NCBI GenBank assembly: GCA_036277775.1
Contig: DASUMJ010000137.1
Coordinates: forward strand, 1 to 46,619
Reading direction: 5' to 3'
DNA from: Candidatus Limnocylindrales bacterium
Lineage (GTDB): Bacteria > Chloroflexota > Limnocylindria > Limnocylindrales > CSP1-4
DNA length: 46,619 nucleotides
In this document: piece after piece, positions 17,669 to 41,850 of the stretch
Layout of the letters: each line of letters opens with the position of its first letter
Position numbering within the stretch: the first letter of the stretch is position 1
The notes under the pieces: model-generated
Database searches by the model: none
The model's input: only the letters and a program-made list of their open reading frames with translations
Told to the model about the DNA's origin: nothing
Made by a program: the position numbers and the translations under genes

Positions 17669-18022
17669 TCAGCTTCCCGAAGACGGACCCGGACGCCGGA
17701 GCGTGACGCGGAGCTCGCGGATCTGGGCCCCTGCCGGCGCGGCGCGGAACGCCTCGGCCAGCTGCCGGGCGTGGAGCCGCAGCTCCTGGGCGACGATCGG
17801 CGCGTCGGCCTCGACGAGGAGCGCGTCGCCCTCGATCCGGAGCGCGCGGCAGGCGCCGTGGGCGGCGGGGGCCCGCTCGGCCACGATCGCGTCGAATGTC
17901 GCCGCGGCGCGCGCGCGTCGGAGCTCGTCGGCAAGCCCGAGCCGCGCCGCCGCGTCCGGGATGAGGTCGCCGATCCGCGACATCGGCCGGCGCCGGCGGC
18001 GCTCCCGATCCTCGTCGCTCAT
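17669..18022 (-). CDS. dciA: DUF721 (DciA-like) protein
   Basis: 117 aa at the tail of track ORF 17669-19087. ATG 18022 overlaps the recF stop (ATGA). 'IGDLIPDAAARLGL…FDAIVAERAPAAHGACRALRIEGDALLVEADAPIVAQELRL' fits the DUF721 pattern. The position after recF is the classical actinobacterial one. Confidence 0.7.
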   Translation of the reverse strand: MSDEDRERRRRRPMSRIGDLIPDAAARLGLADELRRARAAATFDAIVAERAPAAHGACRALRIEGDALLVEADAPIVAQELRLHARQLAEAFRAAPAGAQIRELRVTLRRPGPSSGS

Positions 18023-19089: not shown

Positions 19090-19175
19090 GAGCTGGGGGC
19101 CGGGGCCGAAGCTCGCGGCCAGGGCCCCGTAGCCGCGGAGGTCCGCGAGCCGGATCGAGCCGAGCGTGGCCGGTC

Positions 19176-20294: not shown

Positions 20295-20869
20295 GTCGGG
20301 TCCACTCCACAACGGGTGCGATGACGGCGATCAGATGGTACGGCGCCGGCGGACGGATGGGCAGGTCCGGGCTCGCGGGGCGCCATCCCGGAGGCGTCAC
20401 CGGCCGAGCCCGCGGCGGTCCGGCTCGAGGGGCCGGGTCGCCGGTCGGGGCGTGCCGTCGTGGTGTGTATCTTCCTCCATTCTCAAGAGACCGTCACCGT
20501 CATCACCGTGGTGTGGAGACGGTGGACGGGCACGCTCCGTCCCGTTCGATCGGGATGTGCCCGAGGCCGCCGGTCCCGTGGACATCCGGGCGCCGGCGAG
20601 GCCGAACCGGGGCGCGATGCCGGGCGCGATGTGGACAGCGATCGGCCGCCGCCCCCGGTCGTCCGGGTCGGTCCACGGAGGCACAGGCGTCCGGACACGC
20701 GCCGACCGCGCTCGTCGGCTGCGCCGCTGCGCTTGTCAACGCCGTCGGTCGGGTTGTCCACGGACCGGGGCGGATCGTCGAGGCGCGATCACGCCGTGGG
20801 TCGGCCGGGGAGAAGCGGTGCTCCGCAGTCCGCCGCCGTGAGATGGCTCCGGCTTGGCGGGCCTGGGCG
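20295..20869. other. probable oriC (dnaA-dnaN intergenic DnaA-box cluster plus AT-rich unwinding patch)
   Basis: DnaA-box-like 9-mers, scored against TTGTCCACA:
- TTGTCCACG at 20754-20762 (8/9).
- CTGTCCACA on the - strand at 20630-20638 (8/9).
- ATGTCCACG on the - strand at 20577-20585.
- GTCTCCACA on the - strand at 20512-20520.
- TTGTCAACG at 20733-20741.
- CACTCCACA at 20303-20311.
The most AT-rich patch in the region (TGTATCTTCCTCCATTCTCAAGAGA) lies at 20466-20490. Confidence 0.65.
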
Positions 20870-22267: not shown

Positions 22268-22660
22268 TCGTCGATGACGGCTCTGCTTCGGGGGGCTGCG
22301 ATGGATCGTACGGCTGGATTCGACTCGAGCCGACGCGTCGAGCCTTGGGAACGCCGGGATGCTCGGAACGACGGCTGCTGGGACCGGCCTCCGGTCGGTC
22401 CCGGGTCCCTCGACGCGGGCGCCGCGGGGGGCCGTCCGGGGTGCCGAGGGTCCCGAAAGATAGCACCGCGCCGGAACCCTCGCAAGGCGATTCTGCGATA
22501 CTCCCCAGGAGTATTGTCGCTCGGGTCTCCGACGGACTCCGGGCCGATGTCGGTCGCGGCCGCCGGGCCTCCGGGCCGGGTGCGTCCCGACATCCGCTCG
22601 TGCAGGCTCGCGGCGCCGGCCGGCGCTGCCGCGCGGGGCCTTCGCGGGCGCGCGAGCGGG

Positions 22661-22690
22661 TTTGACACCCCTTCTCGGGGCGTCCTATGA
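22661..22690 (+). promoter_or_regulatory. near-consensus sigma70-type promoter upstream of rpmH
   Basis: TTGACA at 22661-22666, an 18-nt spacer, then TATGAT at 22685-22690. This predicts a ~110-nt leader containing nested GC hairpins (AACGCGCC…GGCGCGTT). Confidence 0.5.
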
Positions 22691-22807
22691 TCCCCCGGAC
22701 GACGAACGCGCCAACGCGCCAATGGGCGCTCGGCGCGTTTGCGTGCCTCTAGGGGTCGAGACCGACACAGCCCCGAGGCCTGATGGAGAGGATCCCGCGC
22801 AGCCCCG

Positions 22808-22942
22808 ATGAAGCAGACCTACCAGCCCAAGAAGCGACATCGCGCCAAGGAACACGGCTTCCGCGCCCGGATGAAGTCCACGGGCGGCCGCCGCGTCCTG
22901 GCCGCTCGGCGGGCTCGCGGTCGCAAGCGACTGACGGTCTGA
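22808..22942 (+). CDS. rpmH: 50S ribosomal protein L34
   Basis: It is not in the ORF track because it is only 44 aa. The translation [44 protein letters not shown] is the unmistakable L34 sequence. Confidence 0.9.
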
Positions 22943-22977
22943 CGGACGGTCGCGGCCGGCTTCGACCGCGGCTGGTG

Positions 22978-23310
22978 ATGCTCTCCCGTCCGCAGGATTT
23001 CGCGGCCCTCCAGGAGCGTGGGACGATGCGGTCCCATCCGCTGCTCGCGGCGCGGATCGCGCGGACGGACCTCGGGACGACGCGCTTCGGGTTCGCGACC
23101 GGGCGGGCCCTCGGCTCGGCGGTCGTCCGCAACCGGGTCCGGCGACGGCTCCGCGGGGCACTCAGGGTGATGGCGCCCTCGTTCCAGCCCGGCTGGGACG
23201 TCCTCATCATCGCCCGGCCGGCGCTCGTCGCAGCCGACCACGAGGCATTGGTCGCGGCGCTCAACCGGCTCCTTGGCCGGGCCGGCGTCCTGGGAGGAAC
23301 CGACGCGTGA
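22978..23310 (+). CDS. rnpA: ribonuclease P protein component
   Basis: 110 aa from ATG 22978 (GTG 22975 is also possible). 'LSRPQDFAALQERGTMRSHPLL…GSAVVRNRVRRRLRGAL' contains the RnpA RNR motif. It directly follows rpmH, and its stop overlaps the yidD GTG. Confidence 0.8.
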   Translation: MLSRPQDFAALQERGTMRSHPLLAARIARTDLGTTRFGFATGRALGSAVVRNRVRRRLRGALRVMAPSFQPGWDVLIIARPALVAADHEALVAALNRLLGRAGVLGGTDA

Positions 23311-23513
23311 AGCGGATCGGAATCGGGTTGATCCACCTGTACCGATTCGCGTTCGCCTGGCTGCCCACCTCCTGCCGCTACGAGCCGACCTGTTCGCGCT
23401 ACACGGAGCAGGCCATCGACCGCTACGGCCTCCTGCGCGGCAGCTGGATGGGCGCTCGACGGATCGCCCGCTGCCATCCCGGCCACCCCGGCGGGTTCGA
23501 CCCCGTCCGATGA
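23307..23513 (+). CDS. yidD: membrane protein insertion efficiency factor YidD
   Basis: 68 aa. 'LIHLYRFAFAWLPTSCRYEPTCSRYTEQAI…CHPGHPGGFDPV' is the YidD signature. Confidence 0.9.
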   Translation: MKRIGIGLIHLYRFAFAWLPTSCRYEPTCSRYTEQAIDRYGLLRGSWMGARRIARCHPGHPGGFDPVR

Positions 23514-23529
23514 ACGAGGTCCCCACCGC

Positions 23530-24708
23530 GTGATCCCCCGCCTCCGGCTCCGAGAGCTCGCGCCGATCCTGCTCATCGTCGCCGTCGCCCTCGTGGTCGC
23601 CGCCTGCGGACCGGGCAGTGGCTCGCTGCCGCCCGGCGTCACCGCGCCGCCGACGCAGACGCCGCCGGCCGGGATCCCGCTCGTGCCGGCGCCCCTGAAC
23701 CCGGACCCGTTCAGCTTCCTCTCGTGGCTGTTCACGCCGATCTTCCAGGTCTTCTTCATCACGCTCGTGCTGCTCGACCGCGTGACCGGGAACATGGCGG
23801 TCGCGATCATCCTCCTGACCATCCTCATCAAGGTCCTGCTGATCCCCGTCTTCCGGCGCCAGCTCGTGTCGACCCGCCGGATGCAGCTCATCAGCCCCGA
23901 GCTCAAGGAGATCCAGCGGCGCTTCAAGGGCGACCGCGTGAAGATCCAGCAGGCGACCGCCCAGCTCTACAAGGAACGGGGGGTCTCGCCGCTCGGCTGT
24001 CTCCCGATCGTCCTCCAGATGTTCCTGCTGATCCCGCTCTACTCGGTCTTCAGCCAGGGCCTCACGAACTTCAACGTCCAGCCGATGATGGAGGTCCTCG
24101 GGTTCACGATCCTCGACCTCGGCTGCGACGCGGCGCCGATCTTCGGGCCGAACAACACGGTCCTGAACCCGTGCCTCAACCCGGTCGCGTTCGGCGTGAA
24201 CTGGGGCCAGCCGGAGGTCTTCCTCGGCAGCCCGGGCGCACTGTTCTCGGGCCTGAGCCTCCTCGCGATCATCTCGGCCCTGGTCCAGCTCGTCGCCTCG
24301 CGGATGATGATGCCGGCGGCGAGCGCGGCGACGGCCGACGACCCGAACATCCGGATGCAGCGCCAGATGGCGATCTTCCTGCCGTTCATCTCGCTGATCT
24401 ACGGCAGCATCCTGCCGGCCGGCCTGTTCCTGTACTGGATCTTCTCCACGGTGTTCTCGATCGGCCAGCAGTACCTGATCCTCGGCTGGGGCGGGATGTT
24501 CCCGCTCTTCGGCCGGACGCCGGGGTTCGCCGTGGATCATCAACCGCGCTTCCCGGTCGCCATGCCAACGGCGCCGACCACCCCCACGCGCGCGGCGGGA
24601 GCGACCGCGCGACCCACCACCGATCGGTCTGCCCTGGACCGGTCCGCTTCCGCCCAGGCAACGATCCGCCAGCGGGGCCGCCAGGGCCGGCGAGGGAGAC
24701 GACGCTAG
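23530..24708 (+). CDS. yidC: membrane protein insertase YidC
   Basis: 392 aa with a signal-anchor/lipoprotein-like N-terminus (…VVAACG). The 60-kDa-IMP core is 'ILLTILIKVLLIPVFRRQ…MQLISPELKEIQRRFK…PLGCLPIVLQ'. The C-terminal tail is basic. Confidence 0.9.
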   Translation: MIPRLRLRELAPILLIVAVALVVAACGPGSGSLPPGVTAPPTQTPPAGIPLVPAPLNPDPFSFLSWLFTPIFQVFFITLVLLDRVTGNMAVAIILLTILIKVLLIPVFRRQLVSTRRMQLISPELKEIQRRFKGDRVKIQQATAQLYKERGVSPLGCLPIVLQMFLLIPLYSVFSQGLTNFNVQPMMEVLGFTILDLGCDAAPIFGPNNTVLNPCLNPVAFGVNWGQPEVFLGSPGALFSGLSLLAIISALVQLVASRMMMPAASAATADDPNIRMQRQMAIFLPFISLIYGSILPAGLFLYWIFSTVFSIGQQYLILGWGGMFPLFGRTPGFAVDHQPRFPVAMPTAPTTPTRAAGATARPTTDRSALDRSASAQATIRQRGRQGRRGRRR

Positions 24709-24724
24709 AGATGAGTGACCACTG

Positions 24725-25852
24725 ATGAGCGCGTACCGTGAATTCACCGGCAAGACCGTCGAGGAGGCGCTCCGGCTGGCGCGCGAGGCCTTCGGGGCCG
24801 GCCTCGACGATCTCGACTTCGAGATCCTGACCCCGGGCAGCCGTGGCGTCCTCGGGATGGGCGCCGAGCCCGCCCGGATCCTCGCCGCCCCCCGCTCGGA
24901 GCTGGGCGGCGCCGCGCCGAAGCGCGAGGCCGCGGCATCGCGACCGCTGCCGGCGCCCCCGCCCCGCGAGGACCGCGGCGACCGTCCCCGCTTCGGTGAC
25001 CGGGACCGCGGCCCCCGGCGCGACGATCGGGGCGACCGCGGCCCGCGCCGCGACGACCGTCCGCGCGACGACCGACCGCCGCGCGTCGACCGACCCCGCG
25101 ACGATCGCCCCCGGGAAGACCGCCCGCCGCGCGACGACGCCGCGCCCCGCGAGGACCGCCCGCCCCGCGAGGACCGCGGCGACCGCCCCCGCTTCGGCGA
25201 CCGGGACCGCGATCGCGGCCCCCGGCGCGACGATCGCGGCGATCGCGGCCCGCGCCGCGACGACCGGCCGCGCGAGGATCGGGCCCGCGGCTCCGCCGAC
25301 CTGACCGAGCGGGAAGCCGCCGAGGTCGCGGCCCTTCGTGGCTCCGTCGCCTCGGAGCGCGCCGAGCTCGAGGCCGCGGAGGCATCGCCCGAGGCCCTGG
25401 CCGCGGGCAAGCTCATCCTCGAGAAGCTCCTCGTCCTCATGGGCTTCGATGTCACCGTGACGGTCGAGTCCGCCGAGACGAGCCGGCTCAACGTCACCGG
25501 GGAGGGCGACGAGCGCGAGGCCCTCGGGGCGCTCATCGGCCGGAAGGGCGAGCGGCTCTCGGCCCTCCAGCACCTCGTCAACCTCATGCTCTCGAAGGAG
25601 ATGGGCGGCTGGACGCGGGTGCTCGTCGACGTCGAGGACTACCGCGGGCGGCGCGAGCGCCAGCTCCGCGAGATCGCCGAGCGGGCCGCCCGACGGGTCA
25701 TCGAGACCGGCAAGATGCTCCAGCTGGAGCCGATGCCGGCCCTCGAGCGGCGCTGGGTCCATCTCGCCCTCCGGAGCCACCCGGACGTGGCGACGCAATC
25801 GATCGGCGAGGAGCCGAACCGCCGGATCGTCGTCCTGCCGCGGCCGGACTGA
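24725..25852 (+). CDS. jag: Jag/KhpB RNA-binding protein (Jag_N + KH + R3H) with expanded Arg/Asp-rich linker
   Basis: The N-terminus 'FTGKTVEEALRLAREAFG…LDFEIL' is a Jag_N domain. The C-terminus has KH/R3H regions ('…ALIGRKGERLSALQHLVN…', '…LEPMPALERRWVHLAL…EEPNRRIVV'). About 170 aa of RD/RP repeats lie between them. Confidence 0.85.
   Translation: MSAYREFTGKTVEEALRLAREAFGAGLDDLDFEILTPGSRGVLGMGAEPARILAAPRSELGGAAPKREAAASRPLPAPPPREDRGDRPRFGDRDRGPRRDDRGDRGPRRDDRPRDDRPPRVDRPRDDRPREDRPPRDDAAPREDRPPREDRGDRPRFGDRDRDRGPRRDDRGDRGPRRDDRPREDRARGSADLTEREAAEVAALRGSVASERAELEAAEASPEALAAGKLILEKLLVLMGFDVTVTVESAETSRLNVTGEGDEREALGALIGRKGERLSALQHLVNLMLSKEMGGWTRVLVDVEDYRGRRERQLREIAERAARRVIETGKMLQLEPMPALERRWVHLALRSHPDVATQSIGEEPNRRIVVLPRPD
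24962..25279 (+). repeat. ~110-bp imperfect direct duplication inside jag (period ~201 bp) plus short RDDRP-type repeats
   Basis: Copy 1 runs from ~24962 and copy 2 from ~25163. Both read CCCCGCGAGGACCGCGGCGACCG(T/C)CCCCGCTTCGG(T/C)GACCGGGACCGCG…, with a 6-bp indel. They encode PREDRGDRPRFGDRDR(DR)GPRRDDRGDRGPRRDDRPR. Confidence 0.7.
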
Positions 25853-28595: not shown

Positions 28596-29912
28596 CTAGG
28601 CGCTCGGCGACCCGGCAGCGTCGCCGGAAGGGAGGCCTCGGCCCTTCTCGAGCACGATCTGGTAGTCCTGGCAGACGCCGGTGTCGAAGCCCGCCTCGCT
28701 GATCGCGAGGTAGTACTCCCACGTCCGAATGAACCGCTCGTCGAAGCCCAGGGCCCGCACGTCGTCGAGGCGGGCCATGAAGGTCGTCCGCCAGGTTGCG
28801 AGCGTCCGGACGTAGTGGGGCGCGATGTCCTCGACGTCGCGGAGAAGGAACCGCGTGTCGTGCAGCGCGTGCTCGATCGCCGCGAGCGACGGCAGCAGGC
28901 CGCCCGGGAAGATGTACGTCTGGATCCAGTTCGCGCCACGCGCCTGGGGGCCGTACGCGACGTCGGGGAAGGCGATCGTCTGCATGCTGAGCCGGCCGCC
29001 GGGTCGCAGCGCCCGGTCGCAGGCGGCGAAGAAGGTCGCGAAGTACTCGGCGCCGACGGCCTCGAACATCTCGATCGAGACGATGGCGTCGAACTGCCCC
29101 TCGACCTCGCGGTAGTCCCGCAGGAGGACGGTGATCCGGTCCTCGAGCCCGGCCGCGCGGACGCGCTCGGAGGCCAGCTCGTGCTGCGCTCGCGAGATCG
29201 TGAGGGTCGTGACCCGGCAGCCGAGCTCGCCGGCCGCGTAGAGGGCGAACCCGCCCCAGCCGGTCCCGATCTCGAGGACGTGCTGGCCGGCCGACAGGCC
29301 GGCTCGCTCGGCGATGACGCGGTACTTGTGGCGCTGGGCGTCGGCCAGGGACTGCTCCGGCGTCGCGAAGACCGCGCTCGAGTAGGTCATCGTCTCGTCG
29401 AGGAACAGGCGGTAGAAGTCGTTGCCCAGGTCGTAATGGGCGGCGATGTTGCGGCGGGCGCCGGCGAGCGTGTTCCGCCGAAGCCGATGGCCGACGGTCG
29501 TGACCAGCCTGGCCGGGATCCGCCACCAGCCGCGGGTCAGTCCCAGCCCGTCGCGGTTGATCGACGCGAGCCTCGCGAGACCCGCCAGGTCCGGGCTCGA
29601 CCAGAGGCCGTCCATGTACGCCTCGCCGGCGCCGAGGTCGCCGCCGAGGAGGATCCGGCGGACGGCCGCGATGTCGAGGATCCTGAGCTCGGCCGTCGGT
29701 CCCGTCTCCGGGTCGCCGAACGCGCGGCCGGAGCCATCCGGCAGCTGCACGACGAGCTGGCCATGGCGGATCCGGCCCGCGGCCGCGAGCATCACCCGGA
29801 GCGCGAGGCGGTCGAGCAGCCCGATCGATCCTCCGCGTCGAGCGGCGCTCGAGGTCGGCCCGGACCGCGGCCACTCCGGCGTGGCCGGATAGCGGTCCGC
29901 CTCCTCGCTCAT
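28596..29912 (-). CDS. cyclopropane-fatty-acyl-phospholipid synthase family SAM-dependent methyltransferase
   Basis: 438 aa. 'NIAAHYDLGNDFYRLFLDETMTYSSAVF' and the SAM motif 'VLEIGTGWGGFALYAA' are present. ATG 29912 overlaps the DUF1365 stop (ATGA). Confidence 0.85.
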   Translation of the reverse strand: MSEEADRYPATPEWPRSGPTSSAARRGGSIGLLDRLALRVMLAAAGRIRHGQLVVQLPDGSGRAFGDPETGPTAELRILDIAAVRRILLGGDLGAGEAYMDGLWSSPDLAGLARLASINRDGLGLTRGWWRIPARLVTTVGHRLRRNTLAGARRNIAAHYDLGNDFYRLFLDETMTYSSAVFATPEQSLADAQRHKYRVIAERAGLSAGQHVLEIGTGWGGFALYAAGELGCRVTTLTISRAQHELASERVRAAGLEDRITVLLRDYREVEGQFDAIVSIEMFEAVGAEYFATFFAACDRALRPGGRLSMQTIAFPDVAYGPQARGANWIQTYIFPGGLLPSLAAIEHALHDTRFLLRDVEDIAPHYVRTLATWRTTFMARLDDVRALGFDERFIRTWEYYLAISEAGFDTGVCQDYQIVLEKGRGLPSGDAAGSPSA

Positions 29913-30724
29913 CGCGAGCCGCTCACGGCGTGGCTGCCGACGACACTCGAGCCGACCGCCCGCCGATGCCGGAAGAACGGCGCCCTCCGCAGCCAGAGCC
30001 GGAGCGCATGCCAGTGGATGAGCCCGATCGTCCGCTGCGTCAGCAGGGGGTGGCGCAGGAGGAGGCGGAGGAGCGACCCGTCGGTCAGGGGGCGACGCCG
30101 GAGCACGAGGCTCGTCGACAGCAGGGGCGATCCGTCCTGCCGGAGGGCAATCGCGATCCGCACGCCGTCCGCATCGTCGCGAACGTGGACCTCGTACCGG
30201 CCGCCGAGCGAGATGAAGGGGGACACGAAGAAGTCCTTGTCCATCGCGGCGCGAAACGCGTCTCCCGCCTCGTCGGTGTCGCCCGGCGTCCGTGCCTCGC
30301 CGCCGGCCGACCGGTGGAGGACGTAGAGGTGGCGCTCGCCGAACGTATTGTGGACCTCCACGATGACCCGACGCAGCCTCCCCGATTCATCGCGGCAGAG
30401 GTAGAAGCTCGCCGGGTTGAAGACGTAGCCGACGATCCGCAGGTTCGTGATCAGGGTGAGGCGCCAGCCTGCCGGATCGACGCCGTCGGCCTCCAGGATG
30501 GCCCGGACGTCGCGGTCGAGGTCGGTCGCCGGCTCCGGGAGGTGGTCGGCGTCGCGGAAGCTCACCAGTGCACGCCGGTTCCGGCCGATCAGTCGTGACC
30601 GCGCGGCGACGGCGTCGAGCTCCTCGAGGTCGAGCGCGAAGTAGAAGACGTCGTGCTCCAGCGCGTAGGTGAACGGCCGGACTCGCCGGTGGCGGACCTT
30701 CCCGACGAGCAGGTGCGAGTTCAT
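29909..30724 (-). CDS. DUF1365 family protein
   Basis: 271 aa from ATG 30724, which overlaps the upstream stop (ATGA). '[30 protein letters not shown]…[17 protein letters not shown]' is the typical DUF1365 N-terminal pattern. Confidence 0.8.
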
Positions 30725-31989
30725 GCCGCGATCCGCTGCGAGGTCTCGGCCAGGGCCGCCGCCACCTCGTAGCCCGACCGACAGCCGTCCTCGTGGAAGC
30801 CGTAGCCGAGGTGGGCACCGGCGTACCACGTGCCGCGGTGACCCTGCAGCGCCCGGAGCCGCGACTGCGCGGCCAGCGTACCGAAGGTGTAGAGCGGGTG
30901 GCTCATCGCCCGCTCGACGATCACCGCGTCCGATCGGACGCTGTCGCCCGGGTTGACCGAGACGCAGTACTCGACGTCGCCGCCGAGCGACTGGAGGCGG
31001 TTCATGTGGTACGTCATGACCAGGCGGTCGGCCGGTCGTCGGCAATCGCCGGTTGCGATGTTCCAGGAACCCCAGGCCCGCCGGTTGCGCGGCAGGACCG
31101 TCGCATCCGTGTGGAGGACGACCTGGTTCGTCGTGTACTCGAACCCGCCGAGCGCTGCCCGCTCGGCGGCGTCCGCGTCGCTGAGCAGCCGCCGCGCGGT
31201 GTCGGCGTGCGTCGCCATGACGACGGCATCGAATCGGGCGACCTCACCGTCTGCGGTCCTGACGGTGGCACCCGCTGGGCCGCGGCGGACCTCGACGACG
31301 GGCACGCCCGTCCGGACCGAGCCCGACGGCAGGCCATCCACGATCCGCCTGGCGTACGTCCGGGAGCCGCCCTGGACCACTCGCCACTGGGGTGCCCGAC
31401 CGAGCCCGATGAGCCCGTGGTTGTCGAGGAACCGGAGGAGATAGGCGATCGGGAACGACTCGATCCGGTCCGGGGCCGTCGACCAGACGGCCGACACGAT
31501 GGGCACGAGGAAGTGGGCCGTGAACGACCGCCCGTATCTGTGGACCTCGAGCCATTCTCCGAGGGTGAGGCTCGACGGGACCGGGGCATCGAGCGTCCGC
31601 CGGGCGTCCCGGTAGAAGCGCAGCACGTCGATCGTCATCGCGGCGTGGGCCGGGCTGAGCGAGGAGGGCGACCCGAACCAGCCGGTGACGCCGCGCGAGC
31701 TGAAGGCGATCCCGCAGGCTCCGCACGAGGAGCCGAGCGACATGTCGCTCGGCTGCGTCGCGACGCCCAGCTCCGCCAGCAACCCCACGAACCGAGGATA
31801 GGTGCGCTCGTTGTAGACGATGAAGCCAGTGTCGACCGGGACGACCGCGCCGTCGACCTCGACCGGCACCGTCTTGACGTGGCCGCCGACCTCCGTCTCC
31901 TGCTCGAAGAGCGTGATCCGGTGCGACTTGTTGAGCTCGTGGGCCGCGGTCAGGCCGCTGATCCCGGAGCCGACGATCGCGATCTCCAT
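30721..31989 (-). CDS. NAD(P)/FAD-dependent oxidoreductase (amine-oxidase / phytoene-desaturase-like)
   Basis: 422 aa from ATG 31989. The Rossmann motif is '[17 protein letters not shown]…[11 protein letters not shown]'. The rest of track ORF 30721-32382 upstream of this Met is R-rich read-through. Confidence 0.8.
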
Positions 31990-31997
31990 GTCGCCGC

Positions 31998-32468
31998 TCA
32001 CCCGGCCGGCGTCGCGCCGCGCGCACCGGCGCCGGCGAGCTCGTCGAGGGCTCGCTGCATCCCGGACCGGGCGTTCTCGGCGATCCGTCGGAAGACGCCC
32101 CCCGCGAACGGCGCGACGAGGCGCATCGCGCCGCCGAGCCGGATGTCGGCGAGGTAGTCGACCTGCGTGCCGCCTGGCGTCGCCTGGAACGAGATCGCAT
32201 CCACCGCCGTCACGCCCGAGCCGCGACCGGTCAGGACGACGCGGCTGGGCGGGTCGAACTGGGTGATCTCGTACTCCATCGGGGTGACGCGTCCGCCCAT
32301 GCGGACGCCGAGCCGATACCGCGACCCGACGCGGACCGGCCCTTCGTCCAGCCGGACCGACGACGCGACGCCTGGATCCCATCGCGCCGCGTTGGCGAAG
32401 TCCGCGACGAAGGCGAAGGCATCGTCGATCCCGAGTTGTGAAACGATCCGCTCTCGAAGCAGCGCCAC
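31998..32468 (-). CDS. SRPBCC (START/polyketide-cyclase-like) family protein
   Basis: 156 aa from GTG 32468, preceded by AAGGAGGG 7 nt upstream. '[18 protein letters not shown]…[16 protein letters not shown]' is present. The stop lies 8 nt before the oxidoreductase start. Confidence 0.7.
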
Positions 32469-32488: not shown

Positions 32489-32510
32489 TGTCTAGTGTTT
32501 GTCTGGTGTT
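32489..32510. repeat. two tandem 11-bp direct repeats in the divergent promoter region
   Basis: TGTCTAGTGTT (32489-32499) and TGTCTGGTGTT (32500-32510) are 10/11 identical. They lie between the predicted - strand promoter and the SD of the SRPBCC gene. They are in 11-bp register with TGTCAA (32544) and TGTATA (32555). Confidence 0.7.
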
Positions 32511-32521
32511 CGTGCAGGCAA

Positions 32522-32562
32522 TTCTTACTGACTTGCGGCGTGGTGTCAAGTGTCTGTATAAT
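32522..32562. promoter_or_regulatory. overlapping divergent promoters (SDR gene on +, SRPBCC-oxidoreductase-DUF1365-CFAS operon on -)
   Basis: On the + strand: TTGCGG (32533-32538), 18 nt, then a perfect TATAAT (32557-32562). On the - strand: a perfect TTGACA (complement of 32544-32549), 16-17 nt, then TAAGAAT (complement of 32521-32527). TGTnnA motifs at 32544, 32555 and 32565 overlie both. Confidence 0.45.
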
Positions 32563-32614: not shown

Positions 32615-33592
32615 ATGGATCACCGAGCCTTCCTCGACGACCTGCTGGAGCTCGTCGTCGTGCCGAGCTTCAGCGCCGTGGGGCCGCGGGTCCGCCGGCC
32701 GCTGTGGGCCTGGACGGACCCGAGCCCTGGGTCGCTCGAGGGACGGACCGCCCTCGTGACCGGTGCGACCGGCGGCCTGGGTCGGGCGGCCTCGCGTGCG
32801 CTGGCCGATCTCGGCGCGCGGGTCTTGCTCCTCGGCCGGGATCGCGGGCGTCTCGAGCAGCTCCGGCTCGAGCTCGCGGGCCCGGGCGACGCCGGGCGGT
32901 TCGCCGTCCACGTCGCTGACATGGCCGACCTCGCGTCGGTCCGAGCGGCGGGCCGGGCGATCGCGGCATCAGAGGCCGCGCTCGACATCGTCGTCGACAA
33001 CGCCGGGATGATCTACCCGGACCGGACGGCAGCCGCCGACGGGACCGAGGCGACGATGGCGCTCATGGTGGTCGGCCCGTTCGTCCTCGTGTCGAGCCTG
33101 CTGCCGCTGCTCCGGCGGTCGACGGACGCGCGCGTCGTCGCCGTCACGTCCGGCGGGATGTACGCATCGCCGCTCGACGTCCGCGACCTGGACGGATCGA
33201 GGCTCGAGTACAGCGGCCCACGGTTCTACGCCCGCGCGAAGCGTGCCCAGGTGGCCGTCATCCGCGAGTGGGCCCGTCGTACCCGGGGGTCGGCCGTCAC
33301 GTTCGTGTCGATGCACCCGGGCTGGGCGCGCACGCCGGGCCTCGCCGCGTCACTGCCCGGATTCGAGCGGATCATGAGCCCGATCCTCCGGTCCCCGGAG
33401 GAGGGGATCGACACGATCACCTGGCTCGTGACCGCCCCTCGCACGCAGTTGCAGGCCGGCCGGGTCTACCTGGACCGGCGGCCGCGGCCGTTCGATCGCG
33501 TGCCGTGGACCCGGCTGGGCGCCGCGGAGCGGCGGATGCTGTGGGACGAGGTCGTCCGCCGGACGAGGGACGCCGATCCGGCGCCGGACTGA
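32615..33592 (+). CDS. SDR family oxidoreductase (DHRS12-like)
   Basis: 325 aa from ATG 32615, with AGAGGAG 5 nt upstream. The cofactor motif is '[15 protein letters not shown]', followed by 'DNAG' and the catalytic 'YARAK'. The track start at 32438 would place the start inside the promoter region. Confidence 0.8.
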
Positions 33593-33665: not shown

Positions 33666-35117
33666 TCAGCTCGCGACGAGCGCGCCGACCCCTTGACGGG
33701 GCCCCACGTCGCGCCCGGACGCGACGCTCCCCGGCCCGCCCGACGGTGCCAGGTAGGTCGCGAGGCCCTCGTCGAGCGGGGTCAGGCGGCGCGGCATCCG
33801 GGCGAGCAGCGGCTCCAGGTCGACCGTCGCCGGGGCGTTGATGAAGTCCACGGCGTCCGGCGTCAGCGGTGGGGACGGCAGCAGCCGCAGCGGCTGCGCC
33901 AGCAGCTTGATGAGCGGTGCCGGGCCCGGGAGGATCGGCCGGGAGACGCCGGCGGCCCGGAGGGCGCGGCCGATGATCGTTCGCATCGTGAAGACGTCCG
34001 GGCCGCCGATCTCGAAGACCTGGTCCACCGCCGCGGGGTCGGCGAGACTGTCGGCGGCCAGGCCCGCGACGTCGTCCACGAAGACCGGGGCCAGCCGCTG
34101 CCGCCCCAGGCTCGTCATCGGGACGACCTGGAGCAGCCGGGCGAACCCGAGGAAGCGGTTCAACGAGACGTCCCGCGGACCGTAGACCCAGGTCGGCCGA
34201 ATGACCGTCCACGGGATGCCGCTCTCCCGGACTGCGGTCTCCGCGCGCCACTTGGCGCGGAACCAGTGGCGTCGCGCGTCGGGGGCGGCCCCGGCACCCG
34301 ACAGATAGACGAGACGGCCGACACCGGCGGCCCGGGCCGTCGCGACGAGGCGCTCCGTGCCGGCCGCGTCCACGGCCATGAACGTCTGCCCGCGGCCCGG
34401 CGCCTCGATCGGGGAGTTGCGGAACGCGAGCGCGATCACGAGCGCGTCCAGGCCGACCATGGACTCGGACAGCCCGTCCCCGGTCGTCGCGTCGGCGTGC
34501 CGGATCTCGACGTCGTCCGGCAGGGGTCCGCGGGCGGACTCGCCGCGGTGGCTCAGGACGACGACGCGATGCCCGCGCCGGTGGAGCTCCGCGGCGATCG
34601 CGCCGCCGACGAAGCCGGTCCCGCCGGCCACCCCGACGGTCAGCGGCCGCTCGTTCGCGGCCGGCCGGGCGAAGATGGCCGCCACGGCCCGCGCGCGATG
34701 GCGAAAGATCTCCAGCAGCTGCGCGCGGACGACCAGGTGATGCGCCAGCGTGCCGAGCGGACCGAGCGGTAGCTCGTAGACGACGGTGTCGTCGATCCGC
34801 GTTCCGCCATCGACCGCGGTGAAGCGGTGCTCGTGGCTCCATCGCCGATACGGTCCGTGGACCTGGACGTCCGTGAATCCGTGAGGCGGGTCGTAGGCCT
34901 CGATCCTCGAGCGCCACCGCATCGGGATCCCGAGCAGCGGCCGGATCCGGTAGTCGATCTCGAGGCCGGCTCGCATCGCGTCGTCCGTCGAGCGTCGCTC
35001 GAACCCCATCGCCGGCGGCGTGATCCGGCCCAGGTTGTCCGGTCGAGCGAAGAACGCGAAGACCTCATCGATCGGGCGATCGACGACCTGGCTCGTTTGC
35101 AGTCGATGGCGGGGCAT
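33666..35117 (-). CDS. fusion protein: SRPBCC domain + NAD(P)-binding NmrA/NDUFA9-like atypical SDR domain
   Basis: 483 aa. The N-terminal ~150 aa read 'VVDRPIDEVFAFFARPDNLGRITPP…WSHEHRF' (cyclase/dehydrase-like). They are followed by 'VGVAGGTGFVGGAIAAEL' (Rossmann) and 'WTVIRPTWVYGPRD'. Confidence 0.75.
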   Translation of the reverse strand: MPRHRLQTSQVVDRPIDEVFAFFARPDNLGRITPPAMGFERRSTDDAMRAGLEIDYRIRPLLGIPMRWRSRIEAYDPPHGFTDVQVHGPYRRWSHEHRFTAVDGGTRIDDTVVYELPLGPLGTLAHHLVVRAQLLEIFRHRARAVAAIFARPAANERPLTVGVAGGTGFVGGAIAAELHRRGHRVVVLSHRGESARGPLPDDVEIRHADATTGDGLSESMVGLDALVIALAFRNSPIEAPGRGQTFMAVDAAGTERLVATARAAGVGRLVYLSGAGAAPDARRHWFRAKWRAETAVRESGIPWTVIRPTWVYGPRDVSLNRFLGFARLLQVVPMTSLGRQRLAPVFVDDVAGLAADSLADPAAVDQVFEIGGPDVFTMRTIIGRALRAAGVSRPILPGPAPLIKLLAQPLRLLPSPPLTPDAVDFINAPATVDLEPLLARMPRRLTPLDEGLATYLAPSGGPGSVASGRDVGPRQGVGALVAS

Positions 35118-35189
35118 GTCAGTCGGACCTCGTGGATCGGGCCATGGCGGCCCGTGTTGCTAACCCGCCTGCCGGGTGCGCGTGGGAAC

Positions 35190-35248
35190 GGTCGCCCGGC
35201 GGCGAGGCCGGGCGACCGCTGGAGGGAGGGGCCCCGGATCCCGGGGCC
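35190..35248 (-). terminator. two GC-rich hairpins downstream of the fasciclin gene
   Basis: Hairpin 1 is GGCCCCGG-atc-CCGGGGCC (35230-35248). Hairpin 2 is GGTCGCCCGGC-ggcgag-GCCGGGCGACC (35190-35217). Neither has a U-tract, so their function as terminators is inferred only. Confidence 0.45.
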
Positions 35249-35265
35249 GGAGCGGCGTGCGTCGA

Positions 35266-35802
35266 CTACGGCAGGAGGACCGAGCCGATGACGTGGATGA
35301 CGCCGTTCGAGGCGGAGATGTCGACGTTCACGATCCCGGCGCCGACGAGCTCGGTCCGCGACAGCCGATCGCCGTTGAGCATCGTGTAGCCGGGTGCACC
35401 GATCACCGACGGGCTGATCCGTCGACCGTTGGTCACGTGGTATAGGAGGATGTCGGCGAGCGCGCCGGCCCCGAACGCGGTGTCGACGCCGCCGCTCTCG
35501 ATGAAGCCGACGACATCAGCCTCGGTGAGCGAAGGATCCCCGAGGATTCCGCGGAACGTCTCGACGAAGGCCCAGTCGGTCGGCGCGAACACCGTGTACT
35601 GGTCGTCGGTGCTCGAGAGGGCTCCGACGAGCCCGGCCTCGATCACCGCGGCCTGGAGGACGTCGAACTCGCCGTCGTTGGCGAGGACGATGTCCACGAT
35701 CGTCGCGTCGCCCGGCTTCGCACCCGGCGCGGCGAGCACCGAGGCGGCGGCGACGGTGAGGGCGAGGAGGGCGGCCGTGGCCCCCGCGAACAGCTTGCGC
35801 AT
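35266..35802 (-). CDS. secreted fasciclin (FAS1) domain protein
   Basis: 178 aa with a signal peptide 'MRKLFAGATAALLALTVAAASVLA'. The FAS1 H1/H2 boxes are 'YTVFAPTDWAF' and 'SNGVIHVIGSVLLP'. GGAG lies 8 nt upstream of the ATG. Confidence 0.8.
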   Translation of the reverse strand: MRKLFAGATAALLALTVAAASVLAAPGAKPGDATIVDIVLANDGEFDVLQAAVIEAGLVGALSSTDDQYTVFAPTDWAFVETFRGILGDPSLTEADVVGFIESGGVDTAFGAGALADILLYHVTNGRRISPSVIGAPGYTMLNGDRLSRTELVGAGIVNVDISASNGVIHVIGSVLLP

Positions 35803-35849
35803 GGTCAGGCTCCTGTTGAACGTACCACCTGTGTCTCAGGTTACGAGGG

Positions 35850-35903
35850 CAACTGTACATACTCTGTACACCCGTTGTCAAGAGTGAGTCAACGCCCTAT
35901 CCT
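35850..35903. promoter_or_regulatory. 11-bp phased operator-like repeats overlapping back-to-back promoters (litR/carH on +, fasciclin on -)
   Basis: TGTACA (35854), TGTACA (35865), TGTCAA (35876) and AGTCAA (35887) are spaced exactly 11 bp apart. On the + strand: TTGTCA (35875-35880), 17 nt, then TATCCT (35898-35903), with ATG at 35913, so the mRNA is essentially leaderless. On the - strand: TTGACA (complement of 35876-35881), 18 nt, then TACAGT (complement of 35852-35857). Confidence 0.5.
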
Positions 35904-35912
35904 GTGCAGACC

Positions 35913-36893
35913 ATGTACAACATCAAGAAAGCAGCAGCCCGTGCCGGGGTCAGCGTCCCGGTCCTTCGCGCCTGGGAACGGCGGTACGGGATCATCAAGC
36001 CCGACCGCACCGCGGGCGGCTACCGCCAGTTCGACGACGCCGACGTCGCCAGGATCCGGACGATGCGGCGGCTCGTGGATGAAGGCTGGTCGCCGAGCGC
36101 CGCAGCGTCCGCGATCATCGCCGGCGCCGTCGACGTCGAGCTCGACGGGGAGCCGGCTCCGCTCGGTGGAGCGGGCTCCGTGGCGAACCGGGCGCTCGGC
36201 CGCGCCGAGGTCGACGATGGTCCGACGGCCGCCGCCGAGCTCGCCGACCGCTTCGTCGCCGGCGCGCGGGCGCTCGACTCACGAGCGATCGCCGCCGCCC
36301 TCGACGACCTGTTCGCGCGCGGCTCCTTCGAGCGCGTGGTCTCCGAGCTGCTCTTCCCCGCGCTCGAGGCACTCGGCGACGCATGGGCCGCGGGTTCGGT
36401 GAGCGTTGCCGGCGAGCACCTCGCCAGCAACGCCGCGCTGCGGCGGCTCGGGCAGGCGCTCGATGCCGCCGGCCCGGCACCGACGGCGCGTGCCGGTCGG
36501 ATCCTCGTCGGGCTGCCACCGGGCGGCCGGCACGAGCTCGGGGCCCTGGCCTTCGCGGTCGCCGCACGACGGGCAGGCCTGCCGGTCGCGTATCTCGGCC
36601 CGGACCTTCCCACGGACGACTGGCTGGCCGCCAGCGACCGGGCCGCGGCCGCCGTGATCGGCGCCGTCACGCCGCGCGACCGCGCGGCCGCGCTCGAGGT
36701 CGCGAGTCGGCTCGGGATCGCCTACCCGGACCTCGTGGTGGCCCTCGCCGGGCGCCACGCGCCGCCGTCGACGGCGTTCCTGCACCTCCCGCCGGGACTG
36801 CGCGACGCGGTCGCTGCACTCGAAGCCGCCCTCGCCGCCCCGGCCGCTGGGCACGGCCGCCCGAGCTCGACGCCGCTCGCGGACCCCGCCTGA
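35913..36893 (+). CDS. litR: MerR-family, cobalamin-binding light-responsive regulator (CarH/LitR class I-like)
   Basis: The MerR HTH is 'MYNIKKAAARAGVSVPVLRAWERRYG…GGYRQF'. The helical-bundle signature is W-x9-E-H ('WAAGSVSVAGEH'). The B12-binding motif is 'GGRHELGALAFA' (x-H-x-x-G). ATG 35913 is preferred over GTG 35904, which would lie upstream of the predicted TSS. Confidence 0.75.
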   Translation: MYNIKKAAARAGVSVPVLRAWERRYGIIKPDRTAGGYRQFDDADVARIRTMRRLVDEGWSPSAAASAIIAGAVDVELDGEPAPLGGAGSVANRALGRAEVDDGPTAAAELADRFVAGARALDSRAIAAALDDLFARGSFERVVSELLFPALEALGDAWAAGSVSVAGEHLASNAALRRLGQALDAAGPAPTARAGRILVGLPPGGRHELGALAFAVAARRAGLPVAYLGPDLPTDDWLAASDRAAAAVIGAVTPRDRAAALEVASRLGIAYPDLVVALAGRHAPPSTAFLHLPPGLRDAVAALEAALAAPAAGHGRPSSTPLADPA

Positions 36894-36940
36894 CCCCGTC
36901 CGGCGTATCGTGAGCCGGCGTCCCGAGAGCGAGGGGCCGG

Positions 36941-37528
36941 ATGGATCGATACGCGGCATTCCCGAGCGTCCCCGTGCTCGAGACCCCACGCCTCGTCCTG
37001 CGCGGGCTGACCCTCGACGACGCGCCCTGGTACCTCCGGCACTTCTCGACGCCCGAGATCGTGTCGGGCCAGGGCTACGCTGCCCCGGTCGACCTCGCCG
37101 CGGCCGAGGCCGAGCTCCGCCGCTTCGTCCTCGACCTGTTCGCCGTGCGGGCCGGCTTCCGCTGGGGCATCGCGACGCGCGACGACCCCGCGCTCATCGG
37201 CTCGGCCGGCCTCTACCGCTGGGTCGACACACCCACGCCCCAGGCCGAGCTCGGCTACGACCTGGACCCGTCAGCGTGGGGACGCGGCTACATGCACGAA
37301 GCCCTCGGCGCGATCCTCGGCCTCGCGTTCGGCCGGATGGGACTCGAGCGCGTCGAGGCATTCGTCCTGGCCACGAACGATCGATCGCAGCGGGTCCTCG
37401 AGCGCCTCGGCTTCCTCCGTGAGGCGCTCCTGCCGGAGCACGGTGAGGACGAGCACGGCGTCCTTCGCGACGAGCTCCGGTTCGGGATCGCCCGCGGGGC
37501 ATGGCACCGCCGCGGCGGGCGCCCCTGA
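36941..37528 (+). CDS. GNAT family N-acetyltransferase (RimJ/RimL-like)
   Basis: 195 aa. 'LETPRLVLRGLTLDDAPWYLRHFS…ELGYDLDPSAWGRGYMHEALGAILGLAF…LERVEAFVLATNDRSQRVLERLGF' is present. It starts 48 nt downstream of litR. Confidence 0.8.
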   Translation: MDRYAAFPSVPVLETPRLVLRGLTLDDAPWYLRHFSTPEIVSGQGYAAPVDLAAAEAELRRFVLDLFAVRAGFRWGIATRDDPALIGSAGLYRWVDTPTPQAELGYDLDPSAWGRGYMHEALGAILGLAFGRMGLERVEAFVLATNDRSQRVLERLGFLREALLPEHGEDEHGVLRDELRFGIARGAWHRRGGRP

Positions 37529-37541
37529 ATCAGAAGGAGGG

Positions 37542-37914
37542 TGGTGGAGATGGGGGAGAGTCGAACTCCCCGTCCAGAGCCCTTCGGCCGCGACCACTAC
37601 GAGCGTGTCCGATCGTTTTCGTCGACCGTCGGGGCGAGGATCGGCACCCTCACCGTCGGTCCAGTCACGTGCCTCTAGATCGAGCTTGACTCCGGACTAC
37701 GCGACGCTCATCCGGGCTGCAGCCCCGCTGCATGACGCTTCCACAACCCGCGGGACCGAGGTTGCTTCCACGCTCACCTTACCGCCTAAGCGGCGAGGGC
37801 GAGAGTCGACTGCTTGTTGGCAGGTACTTCGATTTGCCGCCTGTTTAACGAGGCCTGACGGCACCTCGGCTCGCGTTCACGGTCTTCCGGACCCTGTCGA
37901 AACCACGCATCCCC
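37542..37914 (-). ncRNA. ssrA: transfer-messenger RNA (tmRNA)
   Basis: The - strand reads 5'-GGGGAUGCGUGGUUUCGACAGGG… and ends …GGGGAGUUCGACUCUCCCCCAUCUCCACCA-3'. The acceptor stem has the G3:U wobble and there is a T-arm. The internal tag reading frame GCC AAC AAG CAG UCG ACU CUC GCC CUC GCC GCU UAG (37821-37786) encodes ANKQSTLALAA. Confidence 0.85.
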
Positions 37915-41128: not shown

Positions 41129-41596
41129 TCAGCCCCTGCGGGCCTCGGCCACGTCGCGCTCCATCTGGCGGCGTGCATCGCGCTCGGCGATGTCGCGTCG
41201 GCGGTCGTGGAGCTGCTTGCCCCTCCCGAGCCCGAGCTCGATCTTGGCCCGGCCCCGCTGGCTGATGTAGAGCCGCAGCGGGATCAGGGTCAGGCCCTTC
41301 GCCTTCGTCCTGCCGAGAAGCTGGTCGATCTCGGAGCGGTGGAGGAGGAGCTTCCGGTCACGCTTCGGCTCGTGGTTGTCGCGGGCGCTCGTCGTCGACC
41401 AGGGCGCGATGTGTGCGCCGACGAGCCAGGCCTCGCCGCGCTCGATGCGAGCGTACGCGTCCGAGAGGTTGCCCTTGCCGGCCCGGAGCGCCTTGATCTC
41501 GGTCCCGGACAGCACGATCCCGGCCTCGATCGTGTCCTCGATCGAGAACTCGTGGCGCGCCCTCCGGTTGAGGGCGATGGTCTTCTCCTCGCCCAT
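41129..41596 (-). CDS. smpB: SsrA-binding protein SmpB
   Basis: 155 aa from ATG 41596. 'IALNRRARHEFSIEDTIEAGIVLSGTEIKALRAG…KRDRKLLLHRSEI…GLTLIPLRLY' is present. Confidence 0.9.
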   Translation of the reverse strand: MGEEKTIALNRRARHEFSIEDTIEAGIVLSGTEIKALRAGKGNLSDAYARIERGEAWLVGAHIAPWSTTSARDNHEPKRDRKLLLHRSEIDQLLGRTKAKGLTLIPLRLYISQRGRAKIELGLGRGKQLHDRRRDIAERDARRQMERDVAEARRG

Positions 41597-41674
41597 GGGA
41601 TCGGCTCCTGGTCGGTGTGGTTTGGGCCGGACGGCGCGATGCGCTCCGCGGCCACCGGCTCGGGCTGCGGACGC

Positions 41675-41706
41675 ACGAACGCCGGCCCTCGCGGGCCGGC
41701 GTTCGT
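41675..41706 (-). terminator. 14-bp perfect GC-rich hairpin between ctp and smpB (terminator/attenuator-like)
   Basis: ACGAACGCCGGCCC-tcgc-GGGCCGGCGTTCGT. There is no flanking U-tract on either strand. Confidence 0.4.
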
Positions 41707-41850
41707 CTGCGGCTTCCACCCGCTCGGAAGACCGGCTAGACGGTCATCTCCGGCGAGGTGGTGCAGCGACTGTGTTCTGACACTGCACATCACCTCCTTT
41801 CGTTCGCGGTGAACCCTACTCGATGCCGCCGGTGCTGGCAACCATCACCA

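Follow-up and report, generated by a model that had tools for sequence, protein, structure and literature searches.

A CarH/LitR-type regulator gene with phased repeats over predicted back-to-back promoters in a Candidatus Limnocylindrales genome

Introduction

Proteins of the CarH/LitR family serve as the model for light sensing through B12 and have found wide use as tools in optogenetics and materials. To our knowledge, almost all of the examples that have been studied control carotenoid genes. Here we describe a gene of this family, and the regulatory region upstream of it, in a 46,619-nucleotide stretch of DNA (the window; 46.6 kb) from a Candidatus Limnocylindrales bacterium (contig DASUMJ010000137.1 of assembly GCA_036277775.1). 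An initial annotation, made from the sequence alone, had proposed a light-derepressed, autoregulated litR unit together with a light-controlled secreted fasciclin protein. Our analysis indicates that the gene product is quite probably a dark-state repressor of the CarH type which, when loaded with adenosylcobalamin (AdoCbl), would sit on tandem repeats, blocking both promoter pairs, and would be released by light.

The closest described relative is T. thermophilus CarH (TtCarH, also called LitR; PDB 5C8D/5C8E/5C8F). It shares with the window protein a three-part architecture and fold, the RxWERRY and Wx9EH motifs, the lower-ligand His, the interface Gly residues and an Arg-Asp pair. Its operator, too, is a tandem array of 11-bp TnnACA repeats, with the -35 inside one of them, and its gene is autoregulated in a divergent arrangement. 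The window protein differs in having a longer, disordered linker, Ala in place of His132, and Gly at two positions of the classical B12 motif, where an acidic residue and a Ser are expected, while the locus differs in its apparently non-carotenoid targets, its three repeats plus a pseudo-repeat, and its second operator.

The published CarH repeat is 5'-nnnnTnnACAn-3', arranged as tandem 11-bp units that overlap the -35 or the -10; TtCarH has three units, and B. megaterium CarH (CarHBm) has four, or three and a pseudo-repeat (PMC9304148). The operators of B. megaterium and of the myxobacterial CarH proteins (M. xanthus, Cystobacter, Sorangium) resemble the one described here in having four units, or three and a pseudo-repeat, over the -35/-10, and in placing the -35 TTGACA inside a repeat, as in a direct repeat (DR) of M. 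xanthus; species vary freely in how many repeats they have and in the quality of these (PMC9304148). These regulators differ in controlling crt clusters, and the window is unlike them in that one TTGTCAA forms the -35 of both divergent promoters.

Two other systems resemble the locus in gene content. In Pseudomonas putida and P. mendocina, where a class II LitR (PplR/PmlR) acts with a short LOV protein, the light-induced gene set overlaps strongly with that described here: photolyase, a short-chain dehydrogenase (SDR), a flavin adenine dinucleotide (FAD) oxidoreductase and the CMAS-type UfaM, clustered beside litR (PMC9758184). However, PplR and PmlR have no B12 Rossmann module and receive light via the LOV partner, whereas the window regulator has a full CarH-type B12 module. 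The sigma-E/ChrR regulon of Rhodobacter sphaeroides (the ufaD-ufaO operon and ufaM) likewise encodes a FAD desaturase, a DUF1365 protein and an S-adenosylmethionine methylase, and UfaD, UfaO (DUF1365) and UfaM make singlet-oxygen-scavenging furan fatty acids (PMC7380195); the enzymes in the window are likened to the R. sphaeroides Ufa proteins by domain families only. That regulon depends on an extracytoplasmic function sigma/anti-sigma pair and responds to singlet oxygen, whereas a photoreceptor repressor that responds to light itself is proposed for the window.

Results

Identity of the litR product

The carH/litR gene (hereafter litR; Table 1) encodes a protein in which a MerR-type winged helix-turn-helix (residues 1-70, recognition helix LRAWERRY) is followed by a disordered linker of about 30 residues, a four-helix bundle that carries W158-x9-E168-H169, and a Rossmann B12-binding module with H207 in GRHELG. 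Pfam recognised MerR_1 (2.4e-16) and B12-binding_2 (6.4e-9) in this product. Its best PDB relatives were the T. thermophilus CarH structures 3WHP/5C8D (E 3-5e-34, best 3.4e-34; identity about 31-34%); both the DNA-binding and the cobalamin-binding domains aligned to TtCarH, with the W-x9-EH, (E/G)RHE(I/L)G and YLGPD motifs in register. The top NCBIfam family was CarH (NF052513, equivalog 'HTH-type transcriptional repressor CarH'), at 140.4 bits.

An AlphaFold2 model built on 24 relatives had a mean predicted local distance difference test score (pLDDT) of 87, with residues 82-101 of the linker disordered and the Rossmann module folded as a five-stranded alpha/beta domain at pLDDT >90. When this model was compared with the PDB by Foldseek, the top 50 matches were all TtCarH (full length, E 3e-16), and the cobalamin-binding domain superposed on that of TtCarH with a TM score (target) of 0.75-0.84 and a root-mean-square deviation of 2.5-3 A.

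The Wx9EH motif contacts the upper adenosyl group of AdoCbl. In the litR product it reads W158-AAGSVSVAG-E168-H169 (WAAGSVSVAGEH), and its W, E and H were invariant in the 24 relatives, as was the whole of LRAWERRYG at residues 18-26, which contains RxWERRY. The lower-ligand motif G-R-H207-E-L-G210 aligned to E-R-H-E-I-G of TtCarH, with the H and the final G invariant. These are the features that define CarH, namely RxWERRY in the recognition helix, an intact Wx9EH, which the B12-independent paralogue CarA does not have, and the lower-ligand His within a B12 motif (PMC9304148). Residues G187, G222, R206 and D231, which correspond to the Gly residues of the tetramer interface and to the Arg-Asp dimer pair, aligned to TtCarH and were kept in the relatives; the roles of these residues, and the TtCarH numbering used throughout, were taken as given in PMC10442372 and PMC9304148 and were not recomputed.

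The Wx9EH and RHELG motifs had already been picked out in the initial annotation, together with a CarH/LitR identity that the sequence, profile and fold comparisons with TtCarH bore out. By homology, 35913-36893 clearly encodes a class I LitR or CarH-type protein with a MerR domain and a putative AdoCbl-binding, light-sensing module. Because the Trp of Wx9EH and the Rossmann module are both present, the product, as judged from its sequence, belongs neither with CarA nor with class II LitR.

Related loci

Homologues of the litR product at 60-69% identity were numerous and came from metagenome-assembled genomes (MAGs) assigned to Chloroflexota, Candidatus Limnocylindrales/Limnocylindria or Dormibacterota; the public runs that contained window DNA were soil metagenomes. 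Loci with the region upstream of litR numbered 27 from genomes and 37 from metagenomes. Promoter conservation was counted on 57 unique upstream sequences and TGT occupancy on 51, and 14 close relatives were aligned with MAFFT.

Operator 1 and the divergent promoters

Upstream of litR, on the plus strand, lie TGTACA at 35854-59, TGTACA at 35865-70, TGTCAA at 35876-81 and AGTCAA at 35887-92, in the exact 11-bp phase, and at precisely the coordinates, that had first been assigned to them (operator 1). Read on the minus strand the units are TTGACT, TTGACA (which is the -35 of the leftward promoter), TGTACA and again TGTACA, the last over the leftward -10; for the leftward promoter this matches the published CarH arrangement. 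Since AGTCAA is a pseudo-repeat, operator 1 counts as three full repeats plus a pseudo-repeat. Of the four units, the first alone fits the older full consensus, nAnnTnnACAn, a fit that had been noticed before.

The pattern TGTnnA-N5-TGTnnA-N5-TGTnnA occurred once in the window when both strands were searched, and in 0/100 dinucleotide-preserving shuffles. A scored scan of the window and the 27 genome-derived loci (~240 kb), with a threshold of at least 11/12 core bases over three units, returned 17 sites, all of them upstream of litR and on the litR strand (shuffles, 0.06). The units are read as a CarH operator, as initially proposed, because the published core TnnACA (PMC9304148) reads TGTnnA on the opposite strand, because they are kept in relatives, and because they were found nowhere else.

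A promoter scan of 35100-37600 recovered TTGTCA-17-TATCCT on the plus strand and TTGACA-18-TACAGT on the minus strand, which are exactly the two promoters named before, and nothing else (0 in 50 shuffles). The two -35 hexamers overlap by 5 bp. Operator 1 spans the leftward -10 and spacer, the 7-bp TTGTCAA that forms the -35 in both directions, and the litR spacer. The leftward transcript is predicted to start near 35845, and an AGGAG Shine-Dalgarno (SD) sequence lies 7 nt before the ATG at 35802. The leftward arrangement AnnnTA-N17-19-TGTCAA was found in 48/57 relatives.

Phylogenetic footprinting supported the predicted back-to-back promoters. In the MAFFT alignment of the 14 relatives (A2), the invariant upstream bases were TTGTCAAG and three positions in each of two flanking hexamers: T, A and T in the TAnnnT that lies 16-17 nt downstream, and A, T and A in its mirror image 18 nt upstream, which is the leftward -10 (A63, T67 and A68 of the alignment). 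Both promoters thus keep the three defined bases of TAnnnT. The repeat units at 35876 and 35865 were likewise invariant in their G, T and A; because the second of these falls within the leftward spacer, where it plays no part in the promoter, the conservation of the repeats goes beyond promoter function.

Relative to the TTGTCAA anchor, TGT occupancy peaked at -52, -41 and -30 and at -10, +1 and +12; most relatives therefore carry two triplets 20 nt apart, the distal of which lies over the start of the leftward unit and the first part of its transcript. The distal units of the window (Table 1) were homologous to the well-conserved distal set D1-D3 of the relatives in both the A2 and the anchored alignments. 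Compared with the relatives, a 2-nt insertion puts the distal units of the window into phase, and a perfect repeat at 35854 stands in place of their aGTAGc, giving one site with three perfect repeats. All units in 35821-35892, and likewise all units in 32489-32560, hold a single 11-bp phase per regulatory region in the window; most relatives have a 2-bp offset in phase between the distal and the proximal set of their litR region.

An inverted repeat in the leftward 5' untranslated region (UTR), ACCTG-N5-CAGGT at 35826-35840 (ACCTG-TGTCT-CAGGT), was considered as a hairpin or palindrome and not kept as an element: its RNA fold did no better than those of shuffled sequences (z = -0.45), and it was missing in more distant relatives that retain the direct repeats. 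At the same position close relatives have ACCTT-N5-AAGGT, a double change that preserves pairing and looked compensatory.

The litR start

The true start of litR is the ATG at 35913, and the N-terminus that it gives, MYNIK, was invariant in the 24 relatives. The GTG at 35904, which is the mechanical start of the open reading frame (ORF), was rejected, as it abuts the -10 and the N-termini of the relatives begin with MYNIK. Between the -10 TATCCT and the ATG there are 9 nt, the A of the ATG being the tenth; the distance of 10 nt given in the initial annotation holds when counted in this way.

TAnnnT-N9-ATG was found upstream of litR in 54/57 relatives, preceded by TTGTCA at 16/17 nt in 50/57, and an SD-like 4-mer (GGAG, GAGG or AGGA) within 20 nt before the ATG in 0/57. 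Genes near litR in the window do carry SD sequences (AGGAG, GAGGAG, AAGGAGG or GAGGGG). Because of these three observations (no SD-like 4-mer, a conserved TAnnnT-N9-ATG and neighbours with SD sequences), a litR mRNA that is leaderless or has a very short leader is supported. The transcript likely starts at a purine at 35909-35910; the leaderless start claimed at the outset thus becomes a leaderless or near-leaderless one, with a predicted leader of ~2-4 nt.

A further pair, TGTGCA-N5-TGTACA at 35903-35919, lies over the predicted litR transcript start and the start codon, 5 bp off the operator phase. Its TGTACA is dictated by the Met-Tyr-Asn codons.

Operator 2 and the adjoining genes

The phased TGTnnA search near promoters that had been suggested was run on the window and the related loci, and returned, besides the litR sites, a second operator 3.3 kb from operator 1 (operator 2; 32489-32560). 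It contains five units in one 11-bp phase and lies within a 146-nt divergent region between a small SRPBCC gene and an SDR gene. When the threshold was set at at least 10/12 core bases, the only sites in the window were 32489-32516 and the litR site (shuffles, 0.08). Adjacent perfect pairs gave four plus-strand matches in the window, only in the two regulatory regions (0.1 expected). Across seven further loci, 86 kb in all, they were again confined to these two regions. Six relatives (L077-L081 and L083) keep a proximal pair, TGTCAA-N5-TGTnnA, that overlies the -10, together with a distal pair or triplet; the phase in this region differs among loci (55, 57, 46 or 54 bp). The intergenic region holds two predicted divergent promoters that overlap each other (Table 1). 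The rightward -10, TATAAT, lies inside the repeat unit TGTATAAT, and the equivalent hexamers of relatives are TATAAT, TACAAT, TATAGT and TATACT.

Leftward of operator 2 is a four-gene operon, and rightward a DHRS12-like SDR gene whose homologues are mostly 325 aa long, matching a start at ATG 32615 (JGI name, 'SDR family member 12'). The order of the four genes and the divergent SDR gene was kept in seven further loci (L077-L083). The operon at 28596-32468 is a candidate furan-fatty-acid or photooxidative-stress lipid operon by its domain families. A 553-aa amine-oxidase ORF was rejected on the basis of the G+C content at third codon positions (GC3): the oxidase gene truly starts at ATG 31989, and what lies upstream of that is the small SRPBCC gene in another frame.

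Leftward operon and neighbours of litR

The leftward promoter had been taken to drive a fasciclin gene. Fasciclin is indeed the first gene in that direction, and the picture is here extended to a conserved leftward operon and to the second operator. The fasciclin protein has an N-terminal Sec-type signal sequence, MRKLFAGATAALLALTVAAASVLA/AP (read from the sequence), and was found at the equivalent position in at least 11 related loci. The most conserved member of the leftward operon is an SRPBCC-SDR fusion, which lies leftward of litR in 16/27 loci and whose best PDB matches were NDUFA9-type subunits (1e-13 to 1e-19). In the window, its co-transcription with fasciclin is uncertain because a gap of 148 nt (35118-35265) with two GC-rich hairpins, which have no U-tract, separates the two genes.

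In the relatives the leftward operon consists of the SRPBCC-SDR fusion, heliorhodopsin, and fasciclin or DUF378. Heliorhodopsin (PF18761, E 5e-78; for example L078:9499-10308, minus strand) lies between fasciclin and SRPBCC-SDR, and was found in L001, L002, L004, L006, L009, L013, L021, L077, L078 and L082. No heliorhodopsin remnant was found in the 148-nt gap of the window; on the evidence of the compared loci, the window strain has lost this gene. Among the papers that a literature search covered, none linked heliorhodopsin with CarH.

A photolyase gene lies convergent and just downstream of litR in 10 relatives (for example L002:5172-6602 and L007:4857-6326) and is absent from the window. 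It was considered as a third target and rejected, as no TGTnnA unit was found upstream of photolyase or adh_short in nine loci.

The conserved layout, derived from tblastn of the window proteins against the loci and from Pfam scans, is as follows: CMAS, DUF1365, FAD amine oxidase and small SRPBCC, all leftward; the DHRS12-like SDR, rightward; SRPBCC-SDR, heliorhodopsin and fasciclin/DUF378, leftward; and litR, rightward, often with convergent photolyase and adh_short. The window retains this layout except for heliorhodopsin and photolyase. No crt genes were seen in the window or among the domain-scanned genes of the related loci.

The initial annotation had also joined litR to the GNAT acetyltransferase gene that follows it. 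No terminator was found by a scan between the two genes, and GNAT may be co-transcribed with litR in the window. However, tblastn gave no match to GNAT in any of the 27 genome-derived loci. Because GNAT follows litR only in the window, the pair is not a conserved unit and is at most a local accident.

Table 1. Positions of genes and predicted regulatory elements in the window
Feature	Position	Strand	Description
carH/litR	35913..36893	+	326 aa; N-terminus same in 24 relatives
Operator 1	35854..35892	-	Four tandem 11-bp units; core matches published CarH DR
Degenerate distal units	35821..35848	-	CGTACC 35821, TGTCTC 35832, ACGAGG 35843; same 11-bp phase; in leftward 5' UTR
litR promoter	35875..35903	+	-35 TTGTCA 35875-80, 17-nt spacer, -10 TATCCT 35898-903; scan 9/12
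Leftward promoter	35852..35881	-	-35 TTGACA 35881-76, 18-nt spacer, -10 TACAGT 35857-52; scan 10/12
Fasciclin-domain protein	35266..35802	-	178 aa; Pfam Fasciclin 3e-15; first gene of leftward operon
SRPBCC-SDR	33666..35117	-	483 aa; SRPBCC (START-like) fused to NDUFA9/NmrA-like atypical SDR; Pfam
GNAT acetyltransferase	36941..37528	+	Pfam Acetyltransf_3 1e-31; 47 nt after litR; own GAGGGG SD
Operator 2	32489..32560	-	TGTCTA 32489, TGTCTG 32500, cGTGCA 32511, two non-matching units, TGTCAA 32544, TGTATA 32555
Leftward promoter, operator 2	within 32521..32562	-	TTGACA 32549-44, 17-nt spacer, AAGAAT 32526-21; scan 10/12
Rightward promoter, operator 2	within 32521..32562	+	TTGCGG 32533-38, 18-nt spacer, TATAAT 32557-62; read from sequence
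DHRS12-like classical SDR	32615..33592	+	325 aa; Pfam adh_short; ATG 32615, GAGGAG SD
Four-gene operon	28596..32468	-	Small SRPBCC, FAD amine oxidase, DUF1365, CMAS; Pfam
Small SRPBCC	32468-31998	-	GTG start, AAGGAGG SD
FAD amine-oxidase family, UfaD-like	31989-30721	-	Start by GC3 and SD
DUF1365, UfaO-like	about 30724-29909	-	
CMAS-family methyltransferase, UfaM-like	29912-28596	-	

Discussion

Proposed mechanism

From the likeness to TtCarH we infer B12 binding, an oligomeric state, repression and light release for the litR product. In the dark, AdoCbl-loaded LitR would oligomerise, by analogy with TtCarH as a tetramer, and its DNA-binding domains would occupy the tandem 11-bp direct repeats (core TnnACA on the minus strand, TGTnnA on the plus strand). 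Because operator 1 covers elements of both promoters, one oligomer at this site could shut two units: litR, possibly with GNAT, and the leftward fasciclin operon, possibly with SRPBCC-SDR. In the light, photolysis of the Co-C bond would break the oligomer and free the DNA, and both near-consensus promoters would fire. Operator 2 would put the UfaD/UfaO/UfaM-like operon and the DHRS12-like SDR under the same switch.

A more specific reading, which we offer tentatively as possible but short of probable, is that a Limnocylindria-type LitR without the His132 switch governs a photoprotection island rather than carotenoid genes, via two operators over divergent promoters. The island would comprise the heliorhodopsin operon (heliorhodopsin being lost here), SRPBCC-SDR, the furan-fatty-acid-type lipid operon and the SDR. 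If this is true, a cobalamin photoreceptor sets the level of a retinal photoreceptor, heliorhodopsin, and the clade is a natural test of the need for bis-His ligation in light-driven release.

The locus and its more than 50 relatives extend the CarH/LitR family to an uncultured soil lineage of Chloroflexota. The apparent regulon, with heliorhodopsin, photooxidative-stress lipid enzymes and dehydrogenases of unknown role, gives testable hints on the function of heliorhodopsin, SRPBCC-SDR and the fasciclin/DUF378 proteins. A 7-bp -35 common to two promoters under one operator would be a compact natural bidirectional light switch. Of particular interest are the lineage, the apparent non-carotenoid regulon, the single shared -35, the second operator and the clade-wide loss of the His132 ligand.

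Evidence against a light-released repressor, and alternatives

Several observations weigh against a light-released, AdoCbl-dependent repressor. The litR product scored below the equivalog cutoff of NF052513 (140.4 against 400 bits) and is, by its sequence, a distant member of the CarH family and not an equivalog of the seed proteins. The Pfam B12-binding domain scored 19 bits, below its cutoff of 32.1, and the classical motif D/E-x-H-x2-G...S-x-T/V...GG is incomplete: the acidic residue of D/E-x-H is Gly (G-R-H), the Ser of S-x-T/V is Gly (G250-A-V252), and the GG is A-G in the window protein, although it is GG in most relatives. The window showed no genes for making or importing cobalamin, a question that 46 kb cannot settle, and a scan of the window at the Rfam gathering thresholds found tmRNA only and no cobalamin riboswitch. 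The distal repeat set of the window is degenerate, with a layout unlike that of most relatives. Finally, the only two public RNA runs available, from a study shared with one of the DNA runs, contained 2 and 7 partial reads and gave no usable coverage.

The most direct objection concerns the response to light itself. The residue after the Trp of Wx9EH, at the position of TtCarH His132, is Ala159, and it is Ala in all 24 relatives. In TtCarH, His132 ligates cobalt after illumination to give a bis-His adduct, and the H132A variant was largely tetrameric in the light in one study, whereas an earlier report had found that it disassembles (PMC10442372). Because of the former result, light release of the litR product may be weaker or may work differently, and the clade-wide Ala bears on the current disagreement over how photolysis is coupled to the oligomer. 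Taken further, a CarH-like repressor could bind the repeats with cobalamin, respond poorly or not at all to light, and serve mainly as a sensor of cobalamin availability or redox state. We regard this as unlikely. Apart from the earlier report of disassembly, His132 is present in many but not all CarH homologues; Wx9EH, which confers AdoCbl specificity and photoreceptor activity, is intact; and the neighbours found in relatives, namely heliorhodopsin, photolyase and the furan-fatty-acid-type operon, all appear to point to light.

The operators could instead belong to something else, the phased TGTnnA units being promoter-associated or the site of another regulator and the LitR homologue binding elsewhere, at another target. 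Two promoters have TGTCAA as their -35, and a -10 falls partly within one unit, which partly explains the conservation, and the conserved flanks (AACCTT/AAGGTC) exceed the CarH core. This explanation is nevertheless very unlikely, since the G, T and A are invariant in spacer units that have no promoter role, and the units hold 11-bp steps and one orientation and accompany litR in all of the more than 50 loci. Moreover, they match the experimentally defined CarH repeat core (PMC9304148), and proteins for which binding to such repeats has been shown have an identical RxWERRY motif.

Still less credible is a CarA-like, B12-independent repressor that needs an antirepressor, or a LitR of class II-V that senses light via a partner protein. 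The degenerate B12 motif (two positions) and the sub-threshold Pfam score are what such a protein would have in its favour. However, the litR product has an intact Wx9EH, whose Trp is missing from CarA; it also has the Rossmann module that class II LitR is without, modelled at high confidence; and no LOV or CarS-like gene was seen adjoining litR in any locus. Least likely of all is an activator of the classical MerR type, suggested by the N-terminal MerR domain, which would bind a ligand and then remodel a suboptimal promoter. The promoter spacers measure 16-18 nt rather than 19-20, both hexamers of each promoter (-35 and -10) already come close to consensus, and direct repeats take the place of a dyad in the spacer. 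A CarH-type repressor released by light is thus retained as the preferred explanation.

Additional observations

Two of the related loci, L003 and L006, are distinct litR loci, each with a divergent fasciclin gene, that occur in the same MAG (JANLSG01); they are either two paralogous copies or two strains binned together.

Directly after GNAT in the window is a tmRNA gene (37542-37914, minus strand; Rfam RF00023, 125.8 bits), and 3 kb beyond it an SmpB gene (41129-41719, minus strand). The region 18019-25852 contains recF-like, dnaN and dnaA genes on the minus strand, a 1.26-kb gap, and yidC and jag on the plus strand. The order recF/dnaN/dnaA followed by yidC/jag is the classic neighbourhood of a chromosomal origin, and the putative light-response island would therefore lie ~10 kb from the likely origin. 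At 4597-9906 (minus strand), a 1769-aa ORF with protein O-mannosyltransferase (PMT) domains adjoins genes for a TMEM260-like mannosyltransferase and a family 2 glycosyltransferase.

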